32,000 bases of DNA from Pseudodesulfovibrio mercurii (lineage in GTDB: Bacteria > Desulfobacterota > Desulfovibrionia > Desulfovibrionales > Desulfovibrionaceae), in the NCBI RefSeq assembly GCF_000189295.2, contig NC_016803.1:2010001-2042000 (forward strand). Direction: 5' to 3'. Position numbers and translations under genes: made by a program. Positions 7,207-17,167 of the stretch are shown in pieces (position 1 is the stretch's first letter; every line of letters begins with the position of its first letter). The notes under the pieces were generated by a model. The model was not told the DNA's origin, did no database searches, and was given only the letters and a program-made list of their open reading frames with translations.

Positions 7207-7393
7207 TGATTTTTTGCCATCAGCAAAACGGGACAAGGCTGTCCCTCCGACGTGCGCCCGGCGGTAGGGGCCCGGTCCCGGAAAGCGGTTCCGGGGCGTG
7301 CCGCAGGGCGATTCCGGGACGGTGGCGAGGGGGATTGCCGGGGCGGTTCGGGCGAGGCCCGACGGCGGCCCCGGGGCGCGTCGCGGGACGCGA

Positions 7394-8818
7394 TCAGACG
7401 GTCAGGGAGCCGACGAGCAGGACCGTGCCGAGCAGGCAGATGGCGGCGGCCCCGCACAGGGACAGTCCGGCGTGAAGGACGTTGAACAGGCGGCGGTTGC
7501 GGCCGGACAGGGTCAGGGCGGCCTTGCGGGCCGAGACCGCGAACCAGGCGAACAGGGTGGTGGTCAGCCCCATGCCCAGGGCCATGACCACCAGGGCGGC
7601 CAGGCCGGTCCAGAGGATGTTCAGGCCGATGGCGAAGGCCAGGATGACGGCCGCGCCCGGACAGGGGATCAGCCCGGTGACGAAGGACACGGCCAGGATG
7701 GAGCGCAGGTTTTCGCCCTCGGGTTCGGCGCGGGCGCAGGCGTCGGCCGCGAGGAGCCCGCCCCGGCGCAGGTCGAACACGGCCTTGACCAGGAGGAACA
7801 GCCCCATGAGGGCGAGGAGCCCGTACCCGGCGGGCTGGATGGCCCGGCTGGCGGCCGCGAACCCGCCCATGCCCGTGGAGAACACGAGATAGGCCGCGCC
7901 CACGGCCAGCACGGCCGAGCCCATATGCACGAAGGTGATGGCGTTGCCCATGAGCGCGCCGGTCATGAGCGATCCGGGGCGGCTCAGGAACCAGGAGCAG
8001 ACCACGGCCTTGCCGTGCCCCGGCCCCACGGCGTGGACCACCCCGTAGACGAAGGACAGCCCCAGGAACATCCACAGGGCCGGGCCCCACGGGTCGTCCG
8101 CAAGTTGGACTCCGAAGGCGTCGAGCCGCGCGGTCAGCGCCTTCTGGGCGGACCGGACCAAGCCCATAAACCGGGCGAGGAGGCCGGGCTCGTCCGTTTC
8201 CCCTTCCGCCACGGCGGGGGACGCGCCGGGGATCGCGCTCACGGACAGGTGCACGGCGTCGGGCACGATATAGCGCCAGTAGGTCTGGTCCCTGGCCGGG
8301 CGCATGGCGTGGCTGACCGCGATGCCGCCCTGGACGTCGAAGCGCACGCCGTTCTCGGCGTAGATCATGTCCGTATAATAGTCCCTGTCGAACACGGCCA
8401 TGCGGAAGTCGGCCAGCCGGTCCACGGGCAGGTCGAGGGGCACGTCGAAGTCGTAGACGAAGCGGTTGCCCTTCAGCCCGGCCCGGAAGTGCTCCACCCG
8501 GACCGGCAGCCGCTCGCCCCCGGCCTCGACCAGGGTGAAATAGTGGTAGTTGGACAGGTACTGGAAGGCCCCGTCGCGCACGGCCGCCTGGCCCTGGGGC
8601 GTGGCCAGGGAGGCCGCGTCCAGGCCCAGGTCGCTCAGGATGGCCCGGGTGAACATCTCGTCGAAGAGCCAGCTCTGGTGCACGCCCGACAGCCCGGCGT
8701 CGTCCAGGCGGAAGGTCAGGGACACGTCCACGTAGACGTGCGGGTGGGCTTCGGCCCGGTCCGGGGCCAGGGCCGGACAACACAGGCTCGCCAGGAGAAG
8801 GATGATGATCGTGCGCAT
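7394..8818 (-). CDS. Fusion protein: periplasmic DUF1007-like domain + NicO/RcnA-like nickel/cobalt transporter permease
   Basis: I take the start at the internal ATG (comp. 8816-8818), giving the signal peptide MRTIIILLLASLCCPALA. AHPHVYVDVSLTF opens a DUF1007-type domain of about 240 aa. A multi-TM domain follows, with the HAVGPGHGK and PCPGA motifs typical of COG2215 NicO-type transporters. There is one uninterrupted frame. Confidence 0.8.
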   Translation of the reverse strand: MRTIIILLLASLCCPALAPDRAEAHPHVYVDVSLTFRLDDAGLSGVHQSWLFDEMFTRAILSDLGLDAASLATPQGQAAVRDGAFQYLSNYHYFTLVEAGGERLPVRVEHFRAGLKGNRFVYDFDVPLDLPVDRLADFRMAVFDRDYYTDMIYAENGVRFDVQGGIAVSHAMRPARDQTYWRYIVPDAVHLSVSAIPGASPAVAEGETDEPGLLARFMGLVRSAQKALTARLDAFGVQLADDPWGPALWMFLGLSFVYGVVHAVGPGHGKAVVCSWFLSRPGSLMTGALMGNAITFVHMGSAVLAVGAAYLVFSTGMGGFAAASRAIQPAGYGLLALMGLFLLVKAVFDLRRGGLLAADACARAEPEGENLRSILAVSFVTGLIPCPGAAVILAFAIGLNILWTGLAALVVMALGMGLTTTLFAWFAVSARKAALTLSGRNRRLFNVLHAGLSLCGAAAICLLGTVLLVGSLTV

Positions 8819-8893
8819 GGTCGGTTCCGGCACAGATAAGGGAGAGCCGGGAAGATGGCAAGCCCGTTTCCCGGCGGAAACGCCCGCAGCACG

Positions 8894-8922
8894 TTGCTTT
8901 TTCGGGAAATGCGTTCTAAATT
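8894..8922 (+). promoter_or_regulatory. Possible sigma70 promoter placing the TSS at or next to the ATG of the SBP gene (leaderless candidate)
   Basis: TTGCTT (8894-8899), a 17 nt spacer, TAAATT (8917-8922), then gcgcc and ATG at 8928. No Shine-Dalgarno sequence is visible. Confidence 0.3.
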
Positions 8923-8927
8923 GCGCC

Positions 8928-9680
8928 ATGTTCCGCGATTCGGCACGTATCTCCCATCAACCGCCCCTGCTGCTCTGTTTCCTGTGGTTCCTGCTGGCCC
9001 TCCCGGTCCCGGCCCAGGCCCAGGCCCTGCGGCTGCGCATCGCGACCCTGGAGCTGGGCGCGTGCGGGCACCTGGAAAAGGGTCGCCCGGTCGGGTTCTG
9101 TTACGAACTCGGCGAGATCCTGGCCCGTGCGGCGGGCATGGAGCCGGTCAACCATCTCGTGCCCCTGGCCAGGGGGCTGGACGAGATCGCCTCGGGCGCG
9201 GCGGACATGATCATCATGCCGCCGGAAGCGGACATCGCCGACCTGGCCGAGGACATCGGCCGGGTCAAGCCCGTGACCATGGTGGCCTGGGCGCGGGTGG
9301 AGACCCCCCTGCGCGACGTCCGCGACCTGGGCGGCAAGACCGTGGCCGTGATCCGGGGCTCGCGGCACGAGCTGGACCAGGCCAAAAAGTTCAAGTTCAT
9401 CCCCTTCCCGTGCAAGAACCACGAGCTCGGCTTCAAGATGCTCATGGCCGGGCGCGTGGACGCCGTGCTCGGCCCGCTCCAGGGGCTGACCGCCGAGGCC
9501 GGGCGGCTGGGCCTGCGCCGCCGCTTCCTGGGAGAGCCGCTGGTCCTGGGACGGGACGACATGCGCGTCTATGCGTCCAGGCGGCTGCCCGAGGACGTGC
9601 GCGGCCGCCTGAAGGCGGCCCTGGACCGGCTCATCGAGGACGGGAGCGTGGCCCGGCTGCGGGACAAGTACCCCCTATAA
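8928..9680 (+). CDS. Periplasmic solute-binding protein, family 3 (amino-acid-ABC-like SBP domain)
   Basis: Starting at ATG 8928 gives the signal peptide ..LLLCFLWFLLALPVPAQAQA. The body (..IASGAADMIIMPP.., GKTVAVIRGS.., LMAGRVDAVLGP) resembles SBP_bac_3. It lies directly upstream of a sensor kinase. Confidence 0.75.
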   Translation: MFRDSARISHQPPLLLCFLWFLLALPVPAQAQALRLRIATLELGACGHLEKGRPVGFCYELGEILARAAGMEPVNHLVPLARGLDEIASGAADMIIMPPEADIADLAEDIGRVKPVTMVAWARVETPLRDVRDLGGKTVAVIRGSRHELDQAKKFKFIPFPCKNHELGFKMLMAGRVDAVLGPLQGLTAEAGRLGLRRRFLGEPLVLGRDDMRVYASRRLPEDVRGRLKAALDRLIEDGSVARLRDKYPL

Positions 9681-9772
9681 CCGTGATGACAGGGTGCGGT
9701 GAGTCGTGTACAGGCTGTCGGGAGGATGCACGATTCGGGAGCCCCCTTCCCCCCATTTTTTCCGGAAAGCAG

Positions 9773-11704
9773 ATGCGAGCAGACAACCCCAAGAGAAAAC
9801 GGCCTCTCCTGACCAGCAGGTCCATCTCGCGGGACCTGACCTTCAGCCTGGTGGTCATCGTCATGATCATCGCCACGGCCCTCGGCGGGTTCATCTACTG
9901 GCAGCAGTCCCAGGAGATGTGGGCCACGGCCGAGAAAAAGGGCGAGGACACCATCTCCTCGGTGGCCGAAATCCTGGCCGTGCCCATCTGGAACCTGGAC
10001 TACGACAACGCCCGGCTCATCGGCTCGGTCTACACCCACGACGACATGGTCCAGGGCATCCGCATCTACGGCTCGCGCAACGAGGTGGTCTTCGCCCACG
10101 AGAAGTTCTCGGGCACGCCCGCGGACTTCAGCCAGGTCCGGCCCATCGTCTTCGAGGGCCGCACCATCGGCCGGGCCGAGATCGACTTCACCCTGGAGCG
10201 CGAGAAGAAGCGCCTGGACGAACAGATGTTCGTCTCGATCATCATCATCGTGGTCTCCATCTCCGTCATCCTGGCCATCACCGGCCTGCTCCTGCGCGTC
10301 TTCCTGAACAAGCCGCTCATGGTCCTCCAGTCCGGCATCGCCCGCGTGGCCAAAGGCGACTTCTCCTACGACTTCGGCGAGGTCTACCACGCGGAACTGC
10401 TGGAGATCGCCAAGCGATTCCGGCGCATGTCCATCGAGATCGAGGGCCGCGAGAACAAGCTCCAGACCATGAACAAGACCCTCCAGGAAGCGGAGGAGAA
10501 ATACCGGTCCATCTTCGAGAACGCCATCGAGGGCATCTTCCAGGCCACCCCGGACGGCGTGCTTCGCCGGGCCAACCCGGCCATGGCCCGCATCTTCGGC
10601 TACGACTCCCTGGACGAGTTCCTGTCCAACGTCCGCTCCCTGAGCTCCCGGATCATGGTCAACCCGGACCACATGCAAGGGTTCTTCGACCGCGTGCGCG
10701 ACCAGGGCGAGGTCAAGCGGTTCGAGGCCGAGTACTACCGCCGCGACGGCAAGACCATCTGGGGCTCCCTCAACGCCCGGGCCATCCACGACGAGCGGGG
10801 CAACTTCGTGTTCGTGGACGGCATCCTCGAGGACATCACCGACCGCAAGAAGGCCGAGCAGGACCTGGCCGACCTGAACCGCCACCTGGAACAGTTGGTC
10901 CGCGAGCGCACCGAGGACCTGGTCAACAAGGCCCGCGAGCTGGAGGAGGCCAACCAGCGGCTGCGCGAACTGGACGAGATGAAGTCCGCCTTCCTCTCCT
11001 CGGTCTCCCACGAGCTGCGCACACCCCTGACCTCCATCCTGGGCTTCGCCAAACTCCTGAACAAGGAGTTCACGCGCAACTTCCTGCCCCTGGTCAGCCC
11101 GGAAGGCGCCCTGGCGCGCAAGGGCAAGCGCATCCGCGAGAACCTGGCCATCATCAGCCACGAGGGCGAACGGTTGACCCGGCTGATCAACGACGTCCTC
11201 GACCTGAACAAGATCGAGTCCGGCTCCATGGGCTGGCGCGACGAGGAGCTGGACATGAACGAGGTCATCGAGGTGGCCGCCAGTTCGGTCTCGGGCATGT
11301 TCGCCCAGACCACCCTGGAGCTGCGCACCGAGATCCAGCCGGGCCTGCCGCACATTGTGGCCGACCGCGACCGCATGCAGCAGGTGCTCATCAACCTGCT
11401 CAACAACGCCTCCAAGTTCACGGAAAAGGGCTCGGTCACCCTGCGCGCCTTCCCGCGCTTCAGCCAGCTGCGCGTGGAGGTGGTGGACACCGGCACCGGC
11501 ATCCACCCCGAGGACCAGTCCCAGATCTTCGAGAAGTTCCACCAGACCCACACCGACGACACCATGGTCAACAAGCCCAAGGGCACCGGCCTGGGCCTGA
11601 CCATCTGCCGCGAGATCATCGAGCACTACGGCGGCCGCATCTGGGTCGAGTCCGAAGTCGGCGTAGGCTCCACCTTCATATTTACTTTGCCTGCGATGCA
11701 ATAA
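9773..11704 (+). CDS. Sensor histidine kinase (2 TM, HAMP, PAS/PAC, HisKA, HATPase_c)
   Basis: I take the start at ATG 9773. There are two TM segments. The HAMP is LNKPLMVLQSGIARVAKGDF, the PAS is YRSIFENAIEGIFQATPDG.., the H-box is FLSSVSHELRTPLTSI, and the N/G boxes are LINLLNNASKFT and GTGLGLTICREIIEHYGGRIWVES. Confidence 0.92.
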   Translation: MRADNPKRKRPLLTSRSISRDLTFSLVVIVMIIATALGGFIYWQQSQEMWATAEKKGEDTISSVAEILAVPIWNLDYDNARLIGSVYTHDDMVQGIRIYGSRNEVVFAHEKFSGTPADFSQVRPIVFEGRTIGRAEIDFTLEREKKRLDEQMFVSIIIIVVSISVILAITGLLLRVFLNKPLMVLQSGIARVAKGDFSYDFGEVYHAELLEIAKRFRRMSIEIEGRENKLQTMNKTLQEAEEKYRSIFENAIEGIFQATPDGVLRRANPAMARIFGYDSLDEFLSNVRSLSSRIMVNPDHMQGFFDRVRDQGEVKRFEAEYYRRDGKTIWGSLNARAIHDERGNFVFVDGILEDITDRKKAEQDLADLNRHLEQLVRERTEDLVNKARELEEANQRLRELDEMKSAFLSSVSHELRTPLTSILGFAKLLNKEFTRNFLPLVSPEGALARKGKRIRENLAIISHEGERLTRLINDVLDLNKIESGSMGWRDEELDMNEVIEVAASSVSGMFAQTTLELRTEIQPGLPHIVADRDRMQQVLINLLNNASKFTEKGSVTLRAFPRFSQLRVEVVDTGTGIHPEDQSQIFEKFHQTHTDDTMVNKPKGTGLGLTICREIIEHYGGRIWVESEVGVGSTFIFTLPAMQ

Positions 11705-11731
11705 GCGGCTTCCGATAGCGGCGCATCTGCA

Positions 11732-11799
11732 CATTTTTTCCGGCCGGGCCAATCCTCACGTAGACGGCTACGCTGCGGTTGGCCCGACCGGAAAAAATG
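11732..11799. repeat. Long imperfect hairpin / inverted repeat downstream of the kinase gene
   Basis: 11732-11752 (cattttttccggccgggccaa) pairs with 11779-11799 (ttggcccgaccggaaaaaatg), 21 bp with one mismatch. The 26-nt loop contains a 5-bp sub-stem (cgtag/ctacg). Confidence 0.8.
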
Positions 11800-11977
11800 C
11801 ACAGCTACACCACTCTCGACAAATCCGCAGGACAGCGGATTTGGACGTTGCGGTCTTTCCGCAACGCCCCGAAGGGGTGAGCCCCAGGACGGGGCGAATC
11901 AAAGCCTAGTGCGCGCACGGGAGAGAGAGCCGCTGTCGGGTGCTGCGCACCCGAATCGCTCCAAAGAGGTAAGACAG

Positions 11978-12015
11978 GGCCTTCGACTCTATGTTGAGTC
12001 GGAGGCCTTTTTGTT
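11978..12015 (+). terminator. Strong rho-independent terminator with no obvious upstream gene
   Basis: GGCCTTCGACTC-tatgtt-GAGTCGGAGGCC forms a 12 bp stem with one G.U pair, followed by TTTTTGTT. The nearest upstream plus-strand CDS ends 270 nt earlier. Confidence 0.7.
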
Positions 12016-12219
12016 GGGGGTGCCCACCCCGCGAAGCTGCGACAAAAAGCTTGAAGGGGGTCCAGGGGGCATCCCCGCATCCTGTCAAGTTGCTTTTTTA
12101 TGCTTATCGGGCGCTTTTGGGCGTCATTCTTCAACAAAACAGGGTGTTGGCGAAAACCGGGGGTATGCTGGTTCGGATTCCCGGGGATGGGCCTCGGGGA
12201 CGAAGCCAGAGAGGTTGCC

Positions 12220-13590
12220 ATGGCAGCACCGTATATGTGTGAGACGAGGCGCGGCCCGGACGGGCGCATTGTGGAGAAAACCGAGACCGTCAGGGGGCGG
12301 AAGTCCGTCTGGGCCTACGCCTATGACGGGGACGGACGGCTGACCGAGGCCAAACTGGACGGGCGGGTCATCTGCCAGTGCTGGTACGACCGGGAGGGCC
12401 GCCGGGTGCGGGACTATCTGCCCGCCACGGCCGGGGCGAATTATCGGGATTACCAGTATACTCAGGACAACCGGCTGATGCGCGCCGGGTCCGGGCAGTA
12501 TTCCCACGACGAGCGCGGCTTCCGGTCCATCTGGTCGGACAGGGGCGTGTACACCCTGTACGAGTACAGCCCGGACTACCGGCTGCTCAAGGCCGAGGAG
12601 GAGGGCCGGAACAAGGCCTTGACCTTTGACCACGACGATGACGGGCGGCGCTCGGCCAAGTACCTGAACGGGCAGTTGGTCGAGGCCTACCGGTGGCTCG
12701 ACTTCGTGCGTCTGGCCGCGTTCCACGACGGGCGGCACGGTTACGAGTTCGCCTACCGCGAGGGCGAGCGCACGCCCTACGCCATGCGCCGGGACGACGG
12801 GACCGTGGCCGGGCTCTTATATGACCAGGTCGGCTCCCTGCGCGTGGTTGCCGACGTGGACGGAAACGTGATAAAGGAGGTCCTGTACGATCCCTTCGGC
12901 GGGATCATCGAGGACACCAACCCGAGCCTGCGCCTGCCCATCGGCTTCGCGGGCGGCCTCCACGACCGGGACCTGGGGTTCGTCCGCTTCGGCTGGCGCG
13001 ACTATGACGTCAGGACCGGCCGCTGGACCGCGCCCGACCCCATCGGGGACAAGGGCGGCGACCCGGACTGGTACGGGTATTGTCTGGACGACCCGGTGAA
13101 CATGCATGACCCCATGGGGTTGTTTGCTTGGATCCCGCTGGCAGGAGCCGCGATTGGTGCAGGCTCCAATGCCTATGACAATTGGGATGATTGGAGAAGC
13201 GGCAAGATGAGCACAGGCGACTATGCCACATCCGTTGGCCTGGGAGCTGTAACCGGCGCAGTGAGCACCATGGGCGGGGGTATAGGTTCAACCCTTCTGC
13301 TTGGTGGCGGCTCTGCCGCCTTGAACGAAGTTGGGAACCAGTACATCAGGACAGGCAAAGTCGATGATGTTGGGAAAGTTGCTGCAGCTGCTGGGAGCGG
13401 AGTAATCGGAGGGGCTGCCGGGAAGATCGGCAAGAGCGTCGGAAAGAACTTCGGCAGGATTACACCTTCCATGACGATCCCCCCCAAACCCCTCAAGGAT
13501 GCGAGCAATCTTGGAAGTGTTGTGAGTTCAACTGTCGGCACGGAGATGACTGACGACTGGCTCAACAAGGCTTTGGACAAGCAAAAATAA
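12220..13590 (+). CDS. Short Rhs/YD-repeat protein: YD repeats + RHS core tip (DPxGL) + glycine-zipper C-terminal (toxin-like) domain
   Basis: I take the start at ATG 12220, with GAGAGG 5 nt upstream. YD repeats are YAYDGDGRLTEA, WYDREGRRV, YQYTQDNRLMRA and FDHDDDGRRSAK. The core tip is GFAGGLHDRDLGFVRFGWRDYDVRTGRWTAPDPIGDKGGDPDWYGYCLDDPVNMHDPMGL and ends at 13122. The tail 13123-13587 is rich in GxxxG (GAAIGAG, GLGAVTGAVSTMGGGIGSTLLLGGG, GSGVIGGAAGKIG). Confidence 0.85.
   Translation: MAAPYMCETRRGPDGRIVEKTETVRGRKSVWAYAYDGDGRLTEAKLDGRVICQCWYDREGRRVRDYLPATAGANYRDYQYTQDNRLMRAGSGQYSHDERGFRSIWSDRGVYTLYEYSPDYRLLKAEEEGRNKALTFDHDDDGRRSAKYLNGQLVEAYRWLDFVRLAAFHDGRHGYEFAYREGERTPYAMRRDDGTVAGLLYDQVGSLRVVADVDGNVIKEVLYDPFGGIIEDTNPSLRLPIGFAGGLHDRDLGFVRFGWRDYDVRTGRWTAPDPIGDKGGDPDWYGYCLDDPVNMHDPMGLFAWIPLAGAAIGAGSNAYDNWDDWRSGKMSTGDYATSVGLGAVTGAVSTMGGGIGSTLLLGGGSAALNEVGNQYIRTGKVDDVGKVAAAAGSGVIGGAAGKIGKSVGKNFGRITPSMTIPPKPLKDASNLGSVVSSTVGTEMTDDWLNKALDKQK
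12912..13101 (+). repeat. Core-tip direct repeat, copy 1 (inside the main Rhs gene)
   Basis: 190 bp, roughly 96 percent identical by eye to 13902-14091. Its distal 162 bp match 14771-14932. Confidence 0.9.
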
Positions 13591-13598
13591 GGAAAGTG

Positions 13599-13826
13599 AT
13601 GTTAGGCATTGTCTTCATGTTTGTTGCAGGTGCAGTATGCATCATTGGCGGGTTATTTTTGATCCGAGAATGGTACTATACCCGGCATACAGACCTTCGC
13701 CCATTTTCATGGAAACGTTGGTTCAACAGAGATGAAGGGCTGAACCCCCTTGAAAAGCTTGTCAACGGAATAATAGGTATAATCATTGGTGCATTTGCGA
13801 CGTTGATCTTCCTGTCTTCCTTGTAG
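13599..13826 (+). CDS. Small 2-TM membrane protein, putative immunity protein for the preceding C-terminal domain
   Basis: 75 aa (ATG 13599; a GTG lies at 13596), starting 9 nt after the Rhs stop. TM1 is GIVFMFVAGAVCIIGGLFLI and TM2 is LVNGIIGIIIGAFATLIFLSSL. G+C is markedly lower than the surroundings. The function is inferred from position only. Confidence 0.55.
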   Translation: MLGIVFMFVAGAVCIIGGLFLIREWYYTRHTDLRPFSWKRWFNRDEGLNPLEKLVNGIIGIIIGAFATLIFLSSL

Positions 13827-13836
13827 ACTCACCGAT

Positions 13837-13874
13837 ACGCCCGAGGAAAAAGCCTCGGGCGTGTTTGATTTGTT
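13837..13874 (+). terminator. Rho-independent terminator closing cassette 1
   Basis: ACGCCCGAGG-aaaaag-CCTCGGGCGT followed by GTTTGATTTGTT. Confidence 0.7.
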
Positions 13875-14520
13875 GTGGCGAGTGTCGGGCGGAATTTTAG
13901 CGGACACCAACCCGAGCCTGCGCCTGCCCCTCGGCTTTGCGGGCGGCCTGCACGACCGGGACCTGGGCTTCGTCCGCTTCGGCTGGCGCGACTATGACGT
14001 CAGGACCGGCCGCTGGACCGCGCCCGACCCTATCGGCGACAAGGGCGGCGACCCGGACTGGTACGGGTATTGTCTGGACGACCCGGTGAACGGGGTTGAT
14101 CCGGCGGGGTTGGAAGGCGGGTTTTGGGATGGGGTCAAGAAAATCGGAGCGGGCTTCGGCAAGCTGTGGGACAAGGCCCCGGCCGGTATCGGTGAGGCCG
14201 TTACCAAGGGCGTGAAGGGGGCTGGCAAGGCATTGAGCAAAACGGCGGACGCCTTTGCCACCAACAAGGATTTGCAAAAATATACGGCGATCGCCTTAGG
14301 TGCGGGGGCTCTCCCCATCGTGGCGGCGACAGGCTCGGCAGTGGTGCCGGCGGCCATCGGAGCCGCCATGCAGCACCCGGACACGCTCGCAACCATGTCA
14401 AAAGCGACTGTCGATTTTGCGAATGGATACTTCGACGAAGGCCCGCCGCCGCCTTCCTGGCCCGGCTATCTCGGAGGGCTACTCGGAAAAGCGAAAGATA
14501 TCCACAAGAAAAAGAAGTGA
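13861..14520 (+). CDS. Orphan Rhs core-tip fragment fused to alternative C-terminal domain (CT2); probably not independently translated
   Basis: The frame reads ..DTNPSLRLPLGFAGGLHDRDLGFVRFGWRDYDVRTGRWTAPDPIGDKGGDPDWYGYCLDDPVNGVDPAGL, then a 135-aa Gly/Ala/Lys-rich tail (14113-14517) with the hydrophobic stretch YTAIALGAGALPIVAATGSAVVPAAIGAAM. The only start is GTG 13861, which lies inside the T-tract of the preceding terminator and has no RBS. Confidence 0.7.
   Translation: MFDLLWRVSGGILADTNPSLRLPLGFAGGLHDRDLGFVRFGWRDYDVRTGRWTAPDPIGDKGGDPDWYGYCLDDPVNGVDPAGLEGGFWDGVKKIGAGFGKLWDKAPAGIGEAVTKGVKGAGKALSKTADAFATNKDLQKYTAIALGAGALPIVAATGSAVVPAAIGAAMQHPDTLATMSKATVDFANGYFDEGPPPPSWPGYLGGLLGKAKDIHKKKK
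13902..14091 (+). repeat. Core-tip direct repeat, copy 2
   Basis: It aligns base for base with 12912-13101 at an offset of 990, with about 7 mismatches. Confidence 0.9.
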
Positions 14521-14522
14521 TT

Positions 14523-14720
14523 ATGAGAGTAAAACCGGTGGAAATGGTGCTGAGTGCCGCGATGATAGTAACAAGCCTGCTGAGCATAACGAATGATTAT
14601 TCCTACTTTAAGGGATTTCCCGTATACTCCTGGGTTGAATACATTATTCTGGGGGGAGGTGTGTTGATCCCCGTCCTGGCTTGGTTCCTCCGGTCACCAA
14701 CTCGGAATAAACAAAAATAA
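14523..14720 (+). CDS. Small 2-TM membrane protein, putative immunity protein for CT2
   Basis: 65 aa from ATG 14523, 2 nt after the CT2 stop (the track uses GTG 14517). It reads MRVKPVEMVLSAAMIVTSLLSI...WVEYIILGGGVLIPVLAWFLRSP. It is a paralogue of the ORF at 15352-15555, sharing the MRVK start and the P.LAW(F/Y)LR.P motif. Confidence 0.55.
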   Translation: MRVKPVEMVLSAAMIVTSLLSITNDYSYFKGFPVYSWVEYIILGGGVLIPVLAWFLRSPTRNKQK

Positions 14721-14726
14721 CGGTAG

Positions 14727-14764
14727 GAAACGCCCTGGGAACCATATTTCCAGGGCGTTTCTTC
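14727..14764 (+). terminator. Stem-loop / weak terminator closing cassette 2
   Basis: GAAACGCCCTGG-gaaccatattt-CCAGGGCGTTTC forms a 12 bp stem followed by TTC. The T-tract is only partial. Confidence 0.5.
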
Positions 14765-14770
14765 ACCCCT

Positions 14771-14932
14771 ATCGGCTTCGCGGGCGGCCTGCACGACCGG
14801 GACCTGGGCTTCGTCCGCTTCGGCTGGCGGGATTACGACGTCAGGACCGGCAAATGGTCCGCGCCGGACCCCATCGGGGACAAGGGCGGCGACCCGGACT
14901 GGTACGGGTATTGTCTGGACGACCCGGTGAAC
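14771..14932 (+). repeat. Core-tip direct repeat, copy 3 (5'-shortened)
   Basis: 162 bp matching 12940-13101 and 13930-14091. Similarity to cassette 2 continues to 15222 (cassette 2 coordinate 14381). Confidence 0.9.
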
Positions 14933-15355
14933 GGGGTTGATCCGGCGGGGTTGGAAGGCGGATTTTGGGATGGCGTGAAGAAAATCGAAGCGGGCTTCGG
15001 CAAGCTGTGGGACAAGGCCCCGGCCGGTATCGGTGAGGCCGTTACCAAGGGCGTGAAGGGGGCTGGCAAGGCATTGAGCAAAACGGCGGACGCCTTTGCC
15101 ACCAACAAGGATTTGCAAAAATATACGGCGATCGCCTTAGGTGCGGGGGCTCTCCCCATCGTGGCGGCGACAGGCTCGGCAGTGGTGCCGGCGGCCATCG
15201 GAGCCGCCATGCAGCATCCGGAAAGATTGGCTGTCGCGTCCAAGGCGGCAACTGATTTTGCAACCGGAGCGTTCGACCCAGGGCCTCCGCCGATGACCAA
15301 GGCGGGTATAGCCGGATACGCCGTGAACAAGGCCTATGAGTGGAGTAAACAATGA
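14771..15355 (+). CDS. Second orphan Rhs core-tip fragment fused to CT3 (chimeric relative of CT2); no start codon upstream of the homology
   Basis: The frame is open from 14711 with no ATG or GTG before IGFAGGLHDRDLGFVRFGWRDYDVRTGKWSAPDPIGDKGGDPDWYGYCLDDPVNGVDPAGL. The tail is 14954-15352. The track's start at 14927 is the Val codon of DPVNG. Confidence 0.7.
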   Translation: MGFAGGLHDRDLGFVRFGWRDYDVRTGKWSAPDPIGDKGGDPDWYGYCLDDPVNGVDPAGLEGGFWDGVKKIEAGFGKLWDKAPAGIGEAVTKGVKGAGKALSKTADAFATNKDLQKYTAIALGAGALPIVAATGSAVVPAAIGAAMQHPERLAVASKAATDFATGAFDPGPPPMTKAGIAGYAVNKAYEWSKQ

Positions 15356-15555
15356 GAGTGAAATTGTCTGAAATTCTGTTGGGGGAATTGCTTGTCGGAG
15401 TCGGTGCGTTGGAAATAGGCGCAGGCAAGGCTGGTGTATATGGCTACCCCCAACCCTTGTGGACGGCCTATCTCCTTGTCGCCATCGGCGTCGCACTCCC
15501 TTTGGTTGCTTGGTATTTGCGGCGGCCGCAGAAAGATGAGGACCAGACGGTTTAA
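15352..15555 (+). CDS. Small 2-TM membrane protein, putative immunity protein for CT3
   Basis: 67 aa. Its ATG overlaps the CT3 stop (ATGA). It reads MRVKLSEILLGELLVGVGALEIGAG...LWTAYLLVAIGVALPLVAWYLRRP. Confidence 0.55.
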   Translation: MRVKLSEILLGELLVGVGALEIGAGKAGVYGYPQPLWTAYLLVAIGVALPLVAWYLRRPQKDEDQTV

Positions 15556-15700: not shown

Positions 15701-17167
15701 CTACTCGTCGTATTCGTACTCGATGTCGATGTGGATGGTCTTTTCGTAGCGCTTTTCCAGGTCCGCGAGGATGCCGCGCTTGTTGTTCAGCAGGTAGATG
15801 GCCAGTTCCTCCTCGCAGTCGTACTGGACCTCGTCGGAGCCGGGCTTGCGCAGGTCGCGGTGGATGTCCTTGAGGGCCTGGAGGGCCTGCCATTCCATGT
15901 TCCGGCGGATGCCCGTGCCCTTGCAGCAGGGGCAGGGCTCGGTGGAGATGGCGATGGCCGAGGAGCCCAGCCGCTGGCGGACCAGCTCCATGAGCCCGAA
16001 GGAGGAGATGCGCGAGACGTCGGTCCGGGCGCGGTCGTTCTTCATTTCCGCGCGCATGACCTTCTCCACCTCGCGGCAGTCCTTGGGGTTCTTCATCTCG
16101 ATGAAGTCGATGACCACCTGGCCGCCGATGTCGCGCAGCCGCAGCTGGCGGGCGATCTCGCGGGCGGCCTCCACGTTGGTCTTGAGCGCCATCTTCTGGA
16201 AATTCTTCTCGCCGCCGATCTTGCCGGAGTTGATGTCCACGGCGGTCAGGGCCTCGGTGGCGTCGAAGACCAGCCGCCCGCCCGAGGGCATGGACGCCTC
16301 GCGGGAGTAGATCTCCTCCACCTGCTTGACCAGGTTGAACCGCTCCAGCAGGGACAGCTCGTTGTCCTCGTGCAGCCGGACCAGGTTGTTCTTGCGCGGG
16401 AAGGCCAGCTTGACGAACTGGTGGACCTGCTCATAGGTCTCCTTGTCGTCCACCCAGATCTCGGTGATGTCCAGGGTCAGGTAGTCGCGCACGGCCCGGG
16501 CGGCCAGGCCGAGCTCCTGGTAGACCGGCGCCGGGGCCTTGACCTTCTGGGCGTTGGCCCGGATGTCGGTCCACAGCCGGTTCAGGTACTTGAAGTCGCG
16601 CTCCAGGGCGGCCTTGGACTGGCCCACGGCCGCGGTGCGGGCGATGAGCCCCACGCCCTCGGCGGTCTCGAACCCCTCCAGGGCGGTCTTGAGGCGATCC
16701 CGCTCCTTCTCGTCCTCGATCTTGCGCGAGACCCCGATCTGGCTGCGGCCCACGGTGTAGACGAAGCAGCGGCCGGGCAGGGAGAGGTAGGAGGTCAGGA
16801 ACGCGCCCTTCTTGCCTGTGGGTTCCTTGACCACCTGGACCAGGACCTCCTGGCCGGGCTTGAGCACCTTCTGCATGAGCGGGAAGCGCTGGCCCTTCTT
16901 GGTGGGCACCTCGTTGATGTAGTATTCGGGGTGGACCTCGTCGATCTGCAGAAAGCCGTTGCGCTCGGCCCCGTAGTTGATGAACGCGGCCTGCAACCCG
17001 TTGTCGATGTTGTGGATGTAGCCCTTGTAGATGTTGCCCTTGGTCTTGGCCTGGTGGACCATCTCAACGTAATACTCGTTGACCTTGCCCTCCTCGGCGA
17101 TGACGACCTCGACCTGTTCTCCCGGCAGCACGGAGATGAACATCTTCTGCCGTTTCTTCTTGGTCAT
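15701..17167 (-). CDS. rng: Ribonuclease G (RNase E/G family)
   Basis: I take the start at the internal ATG (comp. 17165-17167), giving MTKKKRQKMFISVLPGEQVEVVIAEEG... The S1 domain is GNIYKGYIHNIDNGLQAAFINYGAERNGFL and the catalytic region is ..AVDINSGK...IGGQVVIDFIEM... At 488 aa it fits Rng rather than Rne. Confidence 0.9.
   Translation of the reverse strand: MTKKKRQKMFISVLPGEQVEVVIAEEGKVNEYYVEMVHQAKTKGNIYKGYIHNIDNGLQAAFINYGAERNGFLQIDEVHPEYYINEVPTKKGQRFPLMQKVLKPGQEVLVQVVKEPTGKKGAFLTSYLSLPGRCFVYTVGRSQIGVSRKIEDEKERDRLKTALEGFETAEGVGLIARTAAVGQSKAALERDFKYLNRLWTDIRANAQKVKAPAPVYQELGLAARAVRDYLTLDITEIWVDDKETYEQVHQFVKLAFPRKNNLVRLHEDNELSLLERFNLVKQVEEIYSREASMPSGGRLVFDATEALTAVDINSGKIGGEKNFQKMALKTNVEAAREIARQLRLRDIGGQVVIDFIEMKNPKDCREVEKVMRAEMKNDRARTDVSRISSFGLMELVRQRLGSSAIAISTEPCPCCKGTGIRRNMEWQALQALKDIHRDLRKPGSDEVQYDCEEELAIYLLNNKRGILADLEKRYEKTIHIDIEYEYDE

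Follow-up and report, generated by a model that had tools for sequence, protein, structure and literature searches.

Among described systems, the Rhs loci of enterobacteria come closest to the locus considered here. Downstream of a main rhs gene they carry partial core fragments that are nearly identical to the upstream core and lead into different tips; these fragments are mostly silent, lie in a tract of low GC content and result from displacement by incoming tips (PMC2935791). The tip regions have a lower GC content than the core, a pattern described by Jackson et al. (PMC2935791). Salmonella provides a precedent: a main rhs gene was observed to recombine with its orphan over 522 bp of 95% identity, and the recombinants were selected. 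They were not simple deletions but followed on a duplication by which the main immunity gene was kept (PMC3967940). The present analysis concerns a 32,000-nt stretch of the Pseudodesulfovibrio mercurii genome (contig NC_016803.1, positions 2,010,001–2,042,000; termed the window, whose own numbering is used below unless another locus is named), where a short Rhs gene is followed by repeated pieces of its own coding sequence. The feature is an ordinary Rhs orphan array of a well-known type; its lineage is unstudied, and its Rhs scaffold is unusually small. The locus is very probably an Rhs polymorphic toxin locus with a main gene that ends in a first tip (tip1) and two silent cassettes, each having a core fragment, a tip, an open reading frame (ORF) for a membrane immunity protein and a hairpin; the repeats would then be the 3′ end of the Rhs core.

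A repeat search of the window shows a direct-repeat family with three copies, spaced by 990 and 841 nt. Copy 1 (12912–13101) lies inside the main gene and covers the last 63 core codons up to the residues PVN. Copy 2 (13902–14091) is the core fragment of the first orphan, with degraded core similarity back to position ~13861, and copy 3 (14771–14932) is that of the second orphan. All three, and the other array features given below, are on the forward strand. In an ungapped comparison of the window to itself, copies 1 and 2 differ at 6 out of 190 nt at an offset of 990 (96.8% identity), where a preliminary description of the locus had counted about 7 by eye. The part of copy 1 at 12940–13101 differs from copy 3 at 10 out of 162 nt at an offset of 1831 (93.8% identity), which is the distal 162-bp match that had been reported. 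The concern that the repeats might be much shorter or more diverged than they appeared did not hold on exact alignment. Copies 2 and 3 have an even longer similarity, with 17 mismatches in 452 nt between 13930–14381 and 14771–15222. The longest perfect runs are 62 and 54 nt between copies 1 and 2, 66 nt between copies 1 and 3, and 228 nt between copies 2 and 3. Repeats of such length and similarity within 32 kb are far beyond chance. The TIGR03696 profile (Rhs_assc_core, cut-off 32.5 bits) gives 65.3 bits for the main-gene core that includes copy 1 (profile positions 1–76), 60 bits for copy 2 (13–76) and 52 bits for copy 3 (17–76).

Relative to copy 1, the similarity of copies 2 and 3 stops directly after GACCCGGTGAAC (positions 13101, 14091 and 14932). 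A single 3′ end common to all copies had been proposed; this is so for copy 1 against each of the other two, but copies 2 and 3 stay homologous to each other on to 14381/15222. They are ~99% identical for ~290 nt past the copy 1 boundary, a stretch that takes in the junction as well as the initial 96 codons of the tip, and divergence begins only past the codons A-M-Q-H-P (14365–14379). The boundary had been placed five codons before the motif DPxGL and is actually two codons before the D (PVN/MH/DPMGL). The 5′ edge of copy 2 is fading and not sharp (tblastn start at 13861, GGIL vs GGII at ~13887). The last 54 nt before the junction are the same in all three copies, at sites where other genomes show synonymous variation. 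Five of the six differences between copies 1 and 2 are synonymous, and the core fragments have a dN/dS (ratio of nonsynonymous to synonymous substitution rates) of 0.06–0.16. Such mostly synonymous differences point to constraint at the protein level, not to selection on a DNA junction. Copies of the same locus resemble one another most (96.3% and 93.8%), compared with 87%–93% for cores of other genomes.

The main gene (12220–13590) encodes a short Rhs/YD-repeat protein of 456 aa, with 100% identity to P0001, a P. mercurii protein of the same length named ‘YD repeat protein’. The core occupies 12220–13122 and ends with PVNMHDPMGL (residues 292–301). Tip1 follows at 13123–13587, with 155 aa, 39% of which are Gly, Ala or Ser. 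In addition to TIGR03696, the protein matches PF25023 (TEN_YD-shell, E=1e-20, profile positions 624–866 of 909), and sequence matches in the PDB are the shells of teneurin-like proteins, teneurin, RhsP and TcC. NF041261 (RHS_core, cut-off 2000 bits) gives no match for the main gene, 14.7 bits for orphan 1 and 9.6 bits for orphan 2. The main protein corresponds to the last 280 aa of the 2144-aa teneurin-like protein 9ifo. The residue aligned to L301 is, within at most one residue, the end of the 9ifo chain (2144 aa), of 6l7i_G (664 aa) and of the post-cleavage form of 8h8a (1152 aa). Because these solved teneurin-like, TcC and Rhs chains end at the L301 equivalent, everything encoded past 13122 would be releasable tip. 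An AlphaFold2 model shows β-hairpins at residues 1–200 (predicted local distance difference test, pLDDT, 73–89) for which the Foldseek matches are Rhs and teneurin structures; the mean pLDDT of the full protein is 58.9, with core plug and tip below 50, and only the YD sheet is usable.

Six aspartates of the core signature (D263, D273, D283, D290, D291 and D297) are invariant in 78 homologs. Autoproteolytic release of the tip after DPxGL, a feature of Rhs polymorphic toxins, is putative here. The motif PxxxxDPxG[LIVMF] is found at about residue 291 in 112 out of 120 homologs, and it starts with PVN in all but two of those listed. About 291 aa lie upstream of the motif, and all of the top 120 homologs have a chain length of 593 aa or less.

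The two orphan units (13902–14720 and 14771–15555) each have a partial core, a DPxGL junction, a distinct tip and a small ORF on the same strand. The main gene is followed by a small hydrophobic ORF with two segments (13599–13826, 75 aa, GC content 0.44), a putative tip1 immunity gene by its hydropathy and position, which accompanies tip1 in three related loci as well (L024, L029 and L016). A terminator hairpin at 13834–13865 (−25.4 kcal/mol, z −6.3, also found in a terminator scan) closes this first cassette directly before copy 2. In orphan 1 the junction codons GVDPAGL and tip2 (135 aa from 14113) extend over 14092–14520; the National Center for Biotechnology Information (NCBI) annotation has this unit as DND132_1823 (13861–14520, 219 aa). 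The 65-aa hydrophobic ORF that comes next (14523–14720) is a putative tip2 immunity gene; its homologs come after tip2-family tips in L003, L011 and L013. A strong hairpin (14722–14767, −30.9 kcal/mol, z −7.2) closes cassette 2 and ends 4 nt before copy 3. Orphan 2 continues with its junction codons and tip3 (133 aa from 14954) at 14933–15355, and a 67-aa hydrophobic ORF at 15352–15555 is the putative tip3 immunity gene, with 31% identity to the tip2 partner.

In both orphans the frame stays open across the core fragment and the tip, for 219 codons in orphan 1 and 214 in orphan 2. For copy 3 this had been stated before, and the frame is indeed open from 14711 to the stop at 15353–15355. GC content decreases from the core pieces (0.68–0.71) to the tips (0.56–0.62) and the small ORFs (0.44–0.54). 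A search for tip2 homologs yields only short Desulfovibrionaceae proteins without annotation. Architecture and co-travel between genomes fit a putative arrangement where each toxin tip is neutralized by the product of the next small ORF. From the Gly/Ala-rich tips and their hydrophobic partners, a membrane target of the tips can be guessed.

Full-length genes of this type have a conserved leader of ~140 nt, which in the window is at 12083–12219. It consists of a TGTCAA box, a AAAACCGGG-GTAnnCT box, a hairpin at ~12178–12200 and the ribosome-binding site (RBS) GAGAGG. Alignment of 14–19 upstream regions shows the leader to be kept down to 42% protein identity; the TGTCAA box is invariant, the hairpin just 5′ of the RBS displays compensatory changes, and RBS and start codon are conserved along with the leader. 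The leader motif is present ~135 nt before nearly every full-length gene and occurs once in the window, i.e. it is absent before both orphans, each of which has a strong hairpin upstream. The only start of orphan 1 is a GTG at 13861, buried in the terminator stem and without a good RBS. Orphan 2 shows no in-frame ATG, GTG or TTG between the upstream stop (14708–14710) and 14927. These features suggest that the orphans are silent. An independent orphan promoter was considered and found no support, as one promoter-like match (13759–13786) was found where 1.4 are expected by chance.

A scan of reference genomes yielded 48 loci, 45 of them from Desulfovibrionaceae-like genomes (L001–L045); P. mercurii itself is not among them. 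By tblastn with the 301-aa core, the 45 related loci contain 30 full-length genes and 50 same-strand core fragments that reach DPxGL. The 5′ starts of the fragments are scattered over residues 58–277, while their 3′ ends are at DPxGL. In 35 of 38 adjacent pairs, no more than 36 nt separate the end of DNA homology from the PVN codons; in the three exceptions, as between copies 2 and 3 here, tip sequence is shared. Most orphan tips in these loci are intact, with 60–180 aa. Tip families found on the main gene in some genomes are orphans in others. The tip2/tip3 family is fused to full-length genes in L003 (10904–11308) and L011 (10904–11275), and tip1 is an orphan in L029, whereas in L024 it comes after a core that is cut off by the contig. 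The same chromosomal position, between a kinase gene and the RNase G gene, is occupied in L004 and L008, where the core is shared and the tips are unrelated to each other and to those of the window. A further member of the tip2/tip3 family, P0132 (128 aa), is encoded by P. mercurii outside of the window and has a different module after AMQHP, so that the genome must have one or more additional loci with this family of tips.

A second exchange junction lies inside the tips, and its local trace is the AMQHP site where copies 2 and 3 cease to be homologous. In the window this junction is at 14365–14381 (tip2) and 15206–15222 (tip3); the two tips are ~99% identical up to AMQHP and unrelated at the DNA level after it. 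Tips of this kind are mosaic, with two unrelated N-terminal parts joined to a common AMQHP...DFxxG...GPPP module. Tip fragments that lack a core and start inside the tip are present in L011 (14457–14750), L013 (13420–13731) and L015 (15433–15741), and a 65-aa membrane ORF comes after each.

The locus can be compared with the enterobacterial orphan loci STM0291/STM0292 of S. Typhimurium, SMA1610-1616 of Serratia marcescens and rhsC of Dickeya dadantii. In both groups, same-strand partial-core fragments of varying length follow the main gene and nearly match the upstream core, and each leads into a different tip with a small ORF behind it. The PxxxxDPxGL boundary between core and tip, a tip GC content below that of the core, the occurrence of orphan tips on full-length genes in other genomes, and fragments that mostly lack start sites and are in some cases degraded are also common to both. 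There are also differences. The core here is ~291 aa, compared with ~1,200–1,400 aa in enterobacteria, and the window shows no PAAR, VgrG, type VI secretion system (T6SS) or chaperone genes. The homology blocks are 162–190 nt, not 522 bp. The tips are small Gly/Ala-rich peptides with a second exchange junction within the tip, and the host is a sulfate-reducing member of the Desulfovibrionaceae.

Other systems have a partly similar logic. In Neisseria, the pilE/pilS system varies an antigen by non-reciprocal gene conversion with dedicated cis elements. It resembles the present locus in having one expressed gene and promoter-less partial copies, and in variable parts that can be moved by homologous recombination. 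Unlike pilS, the cassettes here pair a toxin with its immunity gene, recombination would be expected to yield deletions or duplications, and the locus showed no dedicated cis element. Contact-dependent growth inhibition (CDI) loci with cdiA-CT/cdiI orphans and the VENN motif share a conserved delivery part, a short motif, a variable toxin, a cognate immunity gene and orphans with a stub of upstream homology (PMC3150448). The CDI protein family is unrelated (haemagglutinin repeats, two-partner secretion), the motif is another one, and no cdiB-like gene is present here. The EsaG arrays of type VII secretion system (T7SS)/LXG toxins (PMC9484751) and the T6SS immunity arrays of V. cholerae (PMC5361080) are reported as sets of paralogous immunity genes and toxin fragments that homologous recombination among tandem paralogs has shaped. 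The tip2/tip3 pair and the runs of immunity-like ORFs in L011 are comparable to these; toxin families and secretion systems differ, and those arrays are not reported to have an Rhs core repeat.

Two successive C-terminal displacements are the most likely history of the locus. In a first step, a module with 162 nt of core, the N-terminal part of the tip, a new C-terminal module and an immunity gene would have recombined into the resident gene, and the old pair of tip3 and its immunity gene would have been pushed downstream. In a second step, tip2 would have been displaced by a later module that brought 190 nt of core along with tip1 and the tip1 immunity gene. The last seven codons (xxDPxGL) would move along with each tip. 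Such a two-step history is compatible with every boundary.

The repeats had been proposed to be recombination substrates. As the 3′ end of an Rhs core ahead of alternative tips, they are usable for homologous recombination, which appears feasible because of the perfect runs of 54–228 nt. Recombination between the repeats is plausible on these grounds. An event of the RecA type would fuse the expressed core to tip2, removing 990 bp, or to tip3, removing 1831 bp, and could also exchange the C-terminal modules of tip2 and tip3 (841 bp). It should be noted that a plain deletion between the repeats would also remove the immunity gene of the main toxin.

The preliminary description had gone further and read the sharp boundary and a conserved phase as signs of selection for swap-competent junctions, i.e. 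of a dedicated device whose junction sequence and phase are maintained for programmed tip switching. The 54–66 identical nt before the junction, at sites where other genomes have synonymous variants, and the wide recurrence of the arrangement are in favor of such a device. The copy 1–2 offset of 990 is divisible by 3, as had been stated, but that of 1831 is not, and across the related loci the offsets fall into the three classes (modulo 3 = 0, 1, 2) in 14, 17 and 7 of the 38 adjacent pairs. Comparison of junctions in related loci bears out the fixed position near PVN and not a conserved phase. Phase is in fact uninformative: whichever genomic offset separates two coding repeats, a crossover within them leaves the reading frame intact. 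The shared 3′ boundary is explained by the invariant core, which ends at PVN throughout the family, and its position by purifying selection on the core protein together with the displacement mechanism by which tips arrive (PMC2935791). The boundary is thus no evidence for selection of swap-competence, which is not demonstrated. The scattered 5′ ends of the fragments and the many degraded fragments likewise speak against a dedicated device. Site-specific switching was considered and rejected: the locus has no recombinase ORF or other switching signal, and inverted repeats are present only upstream of the gene or spanning unrelated genes. A dedicated switching device is therefore very unlikely.

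Two other explanations deserve somewhat more weight, and each is still improbable. The repeats may be inert relics, decaying remains of displaced or duplicated genes that persist only for want of time to erode; this is the less improbable of the two. Frameshifted, stop-containing or tip-less fragments do exist (L011 12764–12957, L029 1424–1664, L033, L004 11764–11847 and L045), so that maintenance of orphans, some of which are frameshifted or cut short, is not universal, and the window orphans lack leader and start signals. Yet both of these orphans keep their long open frames, differ from the main core mainly at synonymous sites and retain an intact partner ORF with an RBS, and the majority of orphan tips elsewhere are also intact. 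Less likely again is an independent expression of the orphans through internal promoters or read-through, as intracellular toxin–antitoxin (TA)-like pairs or as a bank of immunity genes, with the core fragments being incidental. An orphan Rhs pair of S. Typhimurium is reported to act as a type II TA-like module (PMC7043789); in addition, NCBI calls the 219-aa ORF at 13861–14520, the immunity ORFs have plausible RBS sequences and L011 has runs of immunity-like ORFs without toxin. Against this are the position of GTG 13861 inside a terminator stem with a poor RBS, the lack of a start codon for orphan 2 upstream of 14927, the chance-level promoter match and the strong hairpins 5′ of both orphans.

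Several points also weigh against the preferred explanation, a polymorphic toxin gene with silent cassettes. The locus is known from one assembled sequence and no recombinant molecule has been seen. The homology of 190 and 162 nt is shorter than the 522 bp of the Salmonella precedent. The protein has neither the large closed shell of ~1,000 aa or more, by which the toxin is enclosed in characterized Rhs proteins, nor any of their N-terminal domains for delivery (PAAR, VgrG-linked, signal or TcB partner). Pfam, NCBIfam and PADLOC give no significant match for the tips or the small ORFs, nor do PDB sequence searches with tip1 and tip2 give a meaningful one. Copy 3 is about equally similar to the L001 core (93.2%) and to copy 1 (93.8%). 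The orthologous main genes are broken, which would suit inert relics as well: in L004 (P. karagichevae) there is an in-frame stop at 10493–10495 after WLDFVR, and in L008 (D. caledoniensis) the gene is 5′-truncated (9806–10000), its leader and first 57 codons being gone. Loci of this type can simply decay.

A broader proposal is that these mini-Rhs proteins form a distinct compact class of polymorphic toxins. The ~291-aa YD sheet and core plug, without a delivery domain and with a leader of its own, would then be a self-cleaving carrier for small Gly/Ala-rich membrane-active peptides, with diversity generated at two nested junctions. PVNxxDPxGL would swap whole tips and AMQHP would swap a C-terminal module of ~45 aa and, with it, the 65-aa membrane immunity partner; the 290 nt of extra homology between copies 2 and 3 would be a footprint of this second tier. 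The proposal is tentative and its chances are well below even. The family is abundant, with many copies in some genomes, such as at least eight mini-Rhs loci in D. caledoniensis.

The repeat array itself adds little beyond extending the logic of displacement and orphan cassettes to the Desulfovibrionaceae, with the same junction motif. It does give concrete recombination products that can be tested in P. mercurii ND132, a genetically tractable model strain for mercury methylation. More useful leads are the abundant family of very short Rhs proteins without a recognizable export route and the second exchange point within the tips. If it is true that the tips are membrane-active peptides that Rhs self-cleavage sets free, the locus would offer a minimal system in which to study what a core needs to carry and release a toxin.

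Some observations concern the leader and the surroundings of these genes. Scans of the window with Rfam (gathering threshold) and for tRNA genes gave no match, the leader included. The leader could be a promoter plus a regulator site, or a regulatory RNA. Three leaders have the same ~140-nt insertion between the second box and the hairpin (L013 ~7255–7400 and ~16945–17090; L015 ~9790–9930), which may be a small mobile element. In L009 (~1880–2000) a mini-Rhs gene is located directly 3′ of the tRNA-like sequence GGTTCAAATCCCGTTTCCCGCTCCA, and this position hints at island-type insertion beside tRNA genes.

The main gene of the window is flanked by a PAS histidine kinase gene upstream and by the RNase G gene downstream on the opposite strand. 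After the kinase gene there is an inverted repeat with 51-nt arms that are 75% complementary (11713–11818), and then a block of ~180 nt (11830–12010) that ends in a strong terminator (11976–12009). Parts of the inverted repeat and of the block recur upstream of mini-Rhs genes elsewhere on chromosomes (L003, L025). They may belong to a larger unit that moves with the gene; alternatively, a small RNA may be encoded in the block. The kinase gene is within an ORF of 949 aa, the first ~300 codons of which (8855–9800) are of low complexity and rich in Pro, Gly and Arg, as is typical of an out-of-gene frame in high-GC DNA. The gene probably starts later than this ORF, as its domains begin after ~9800.

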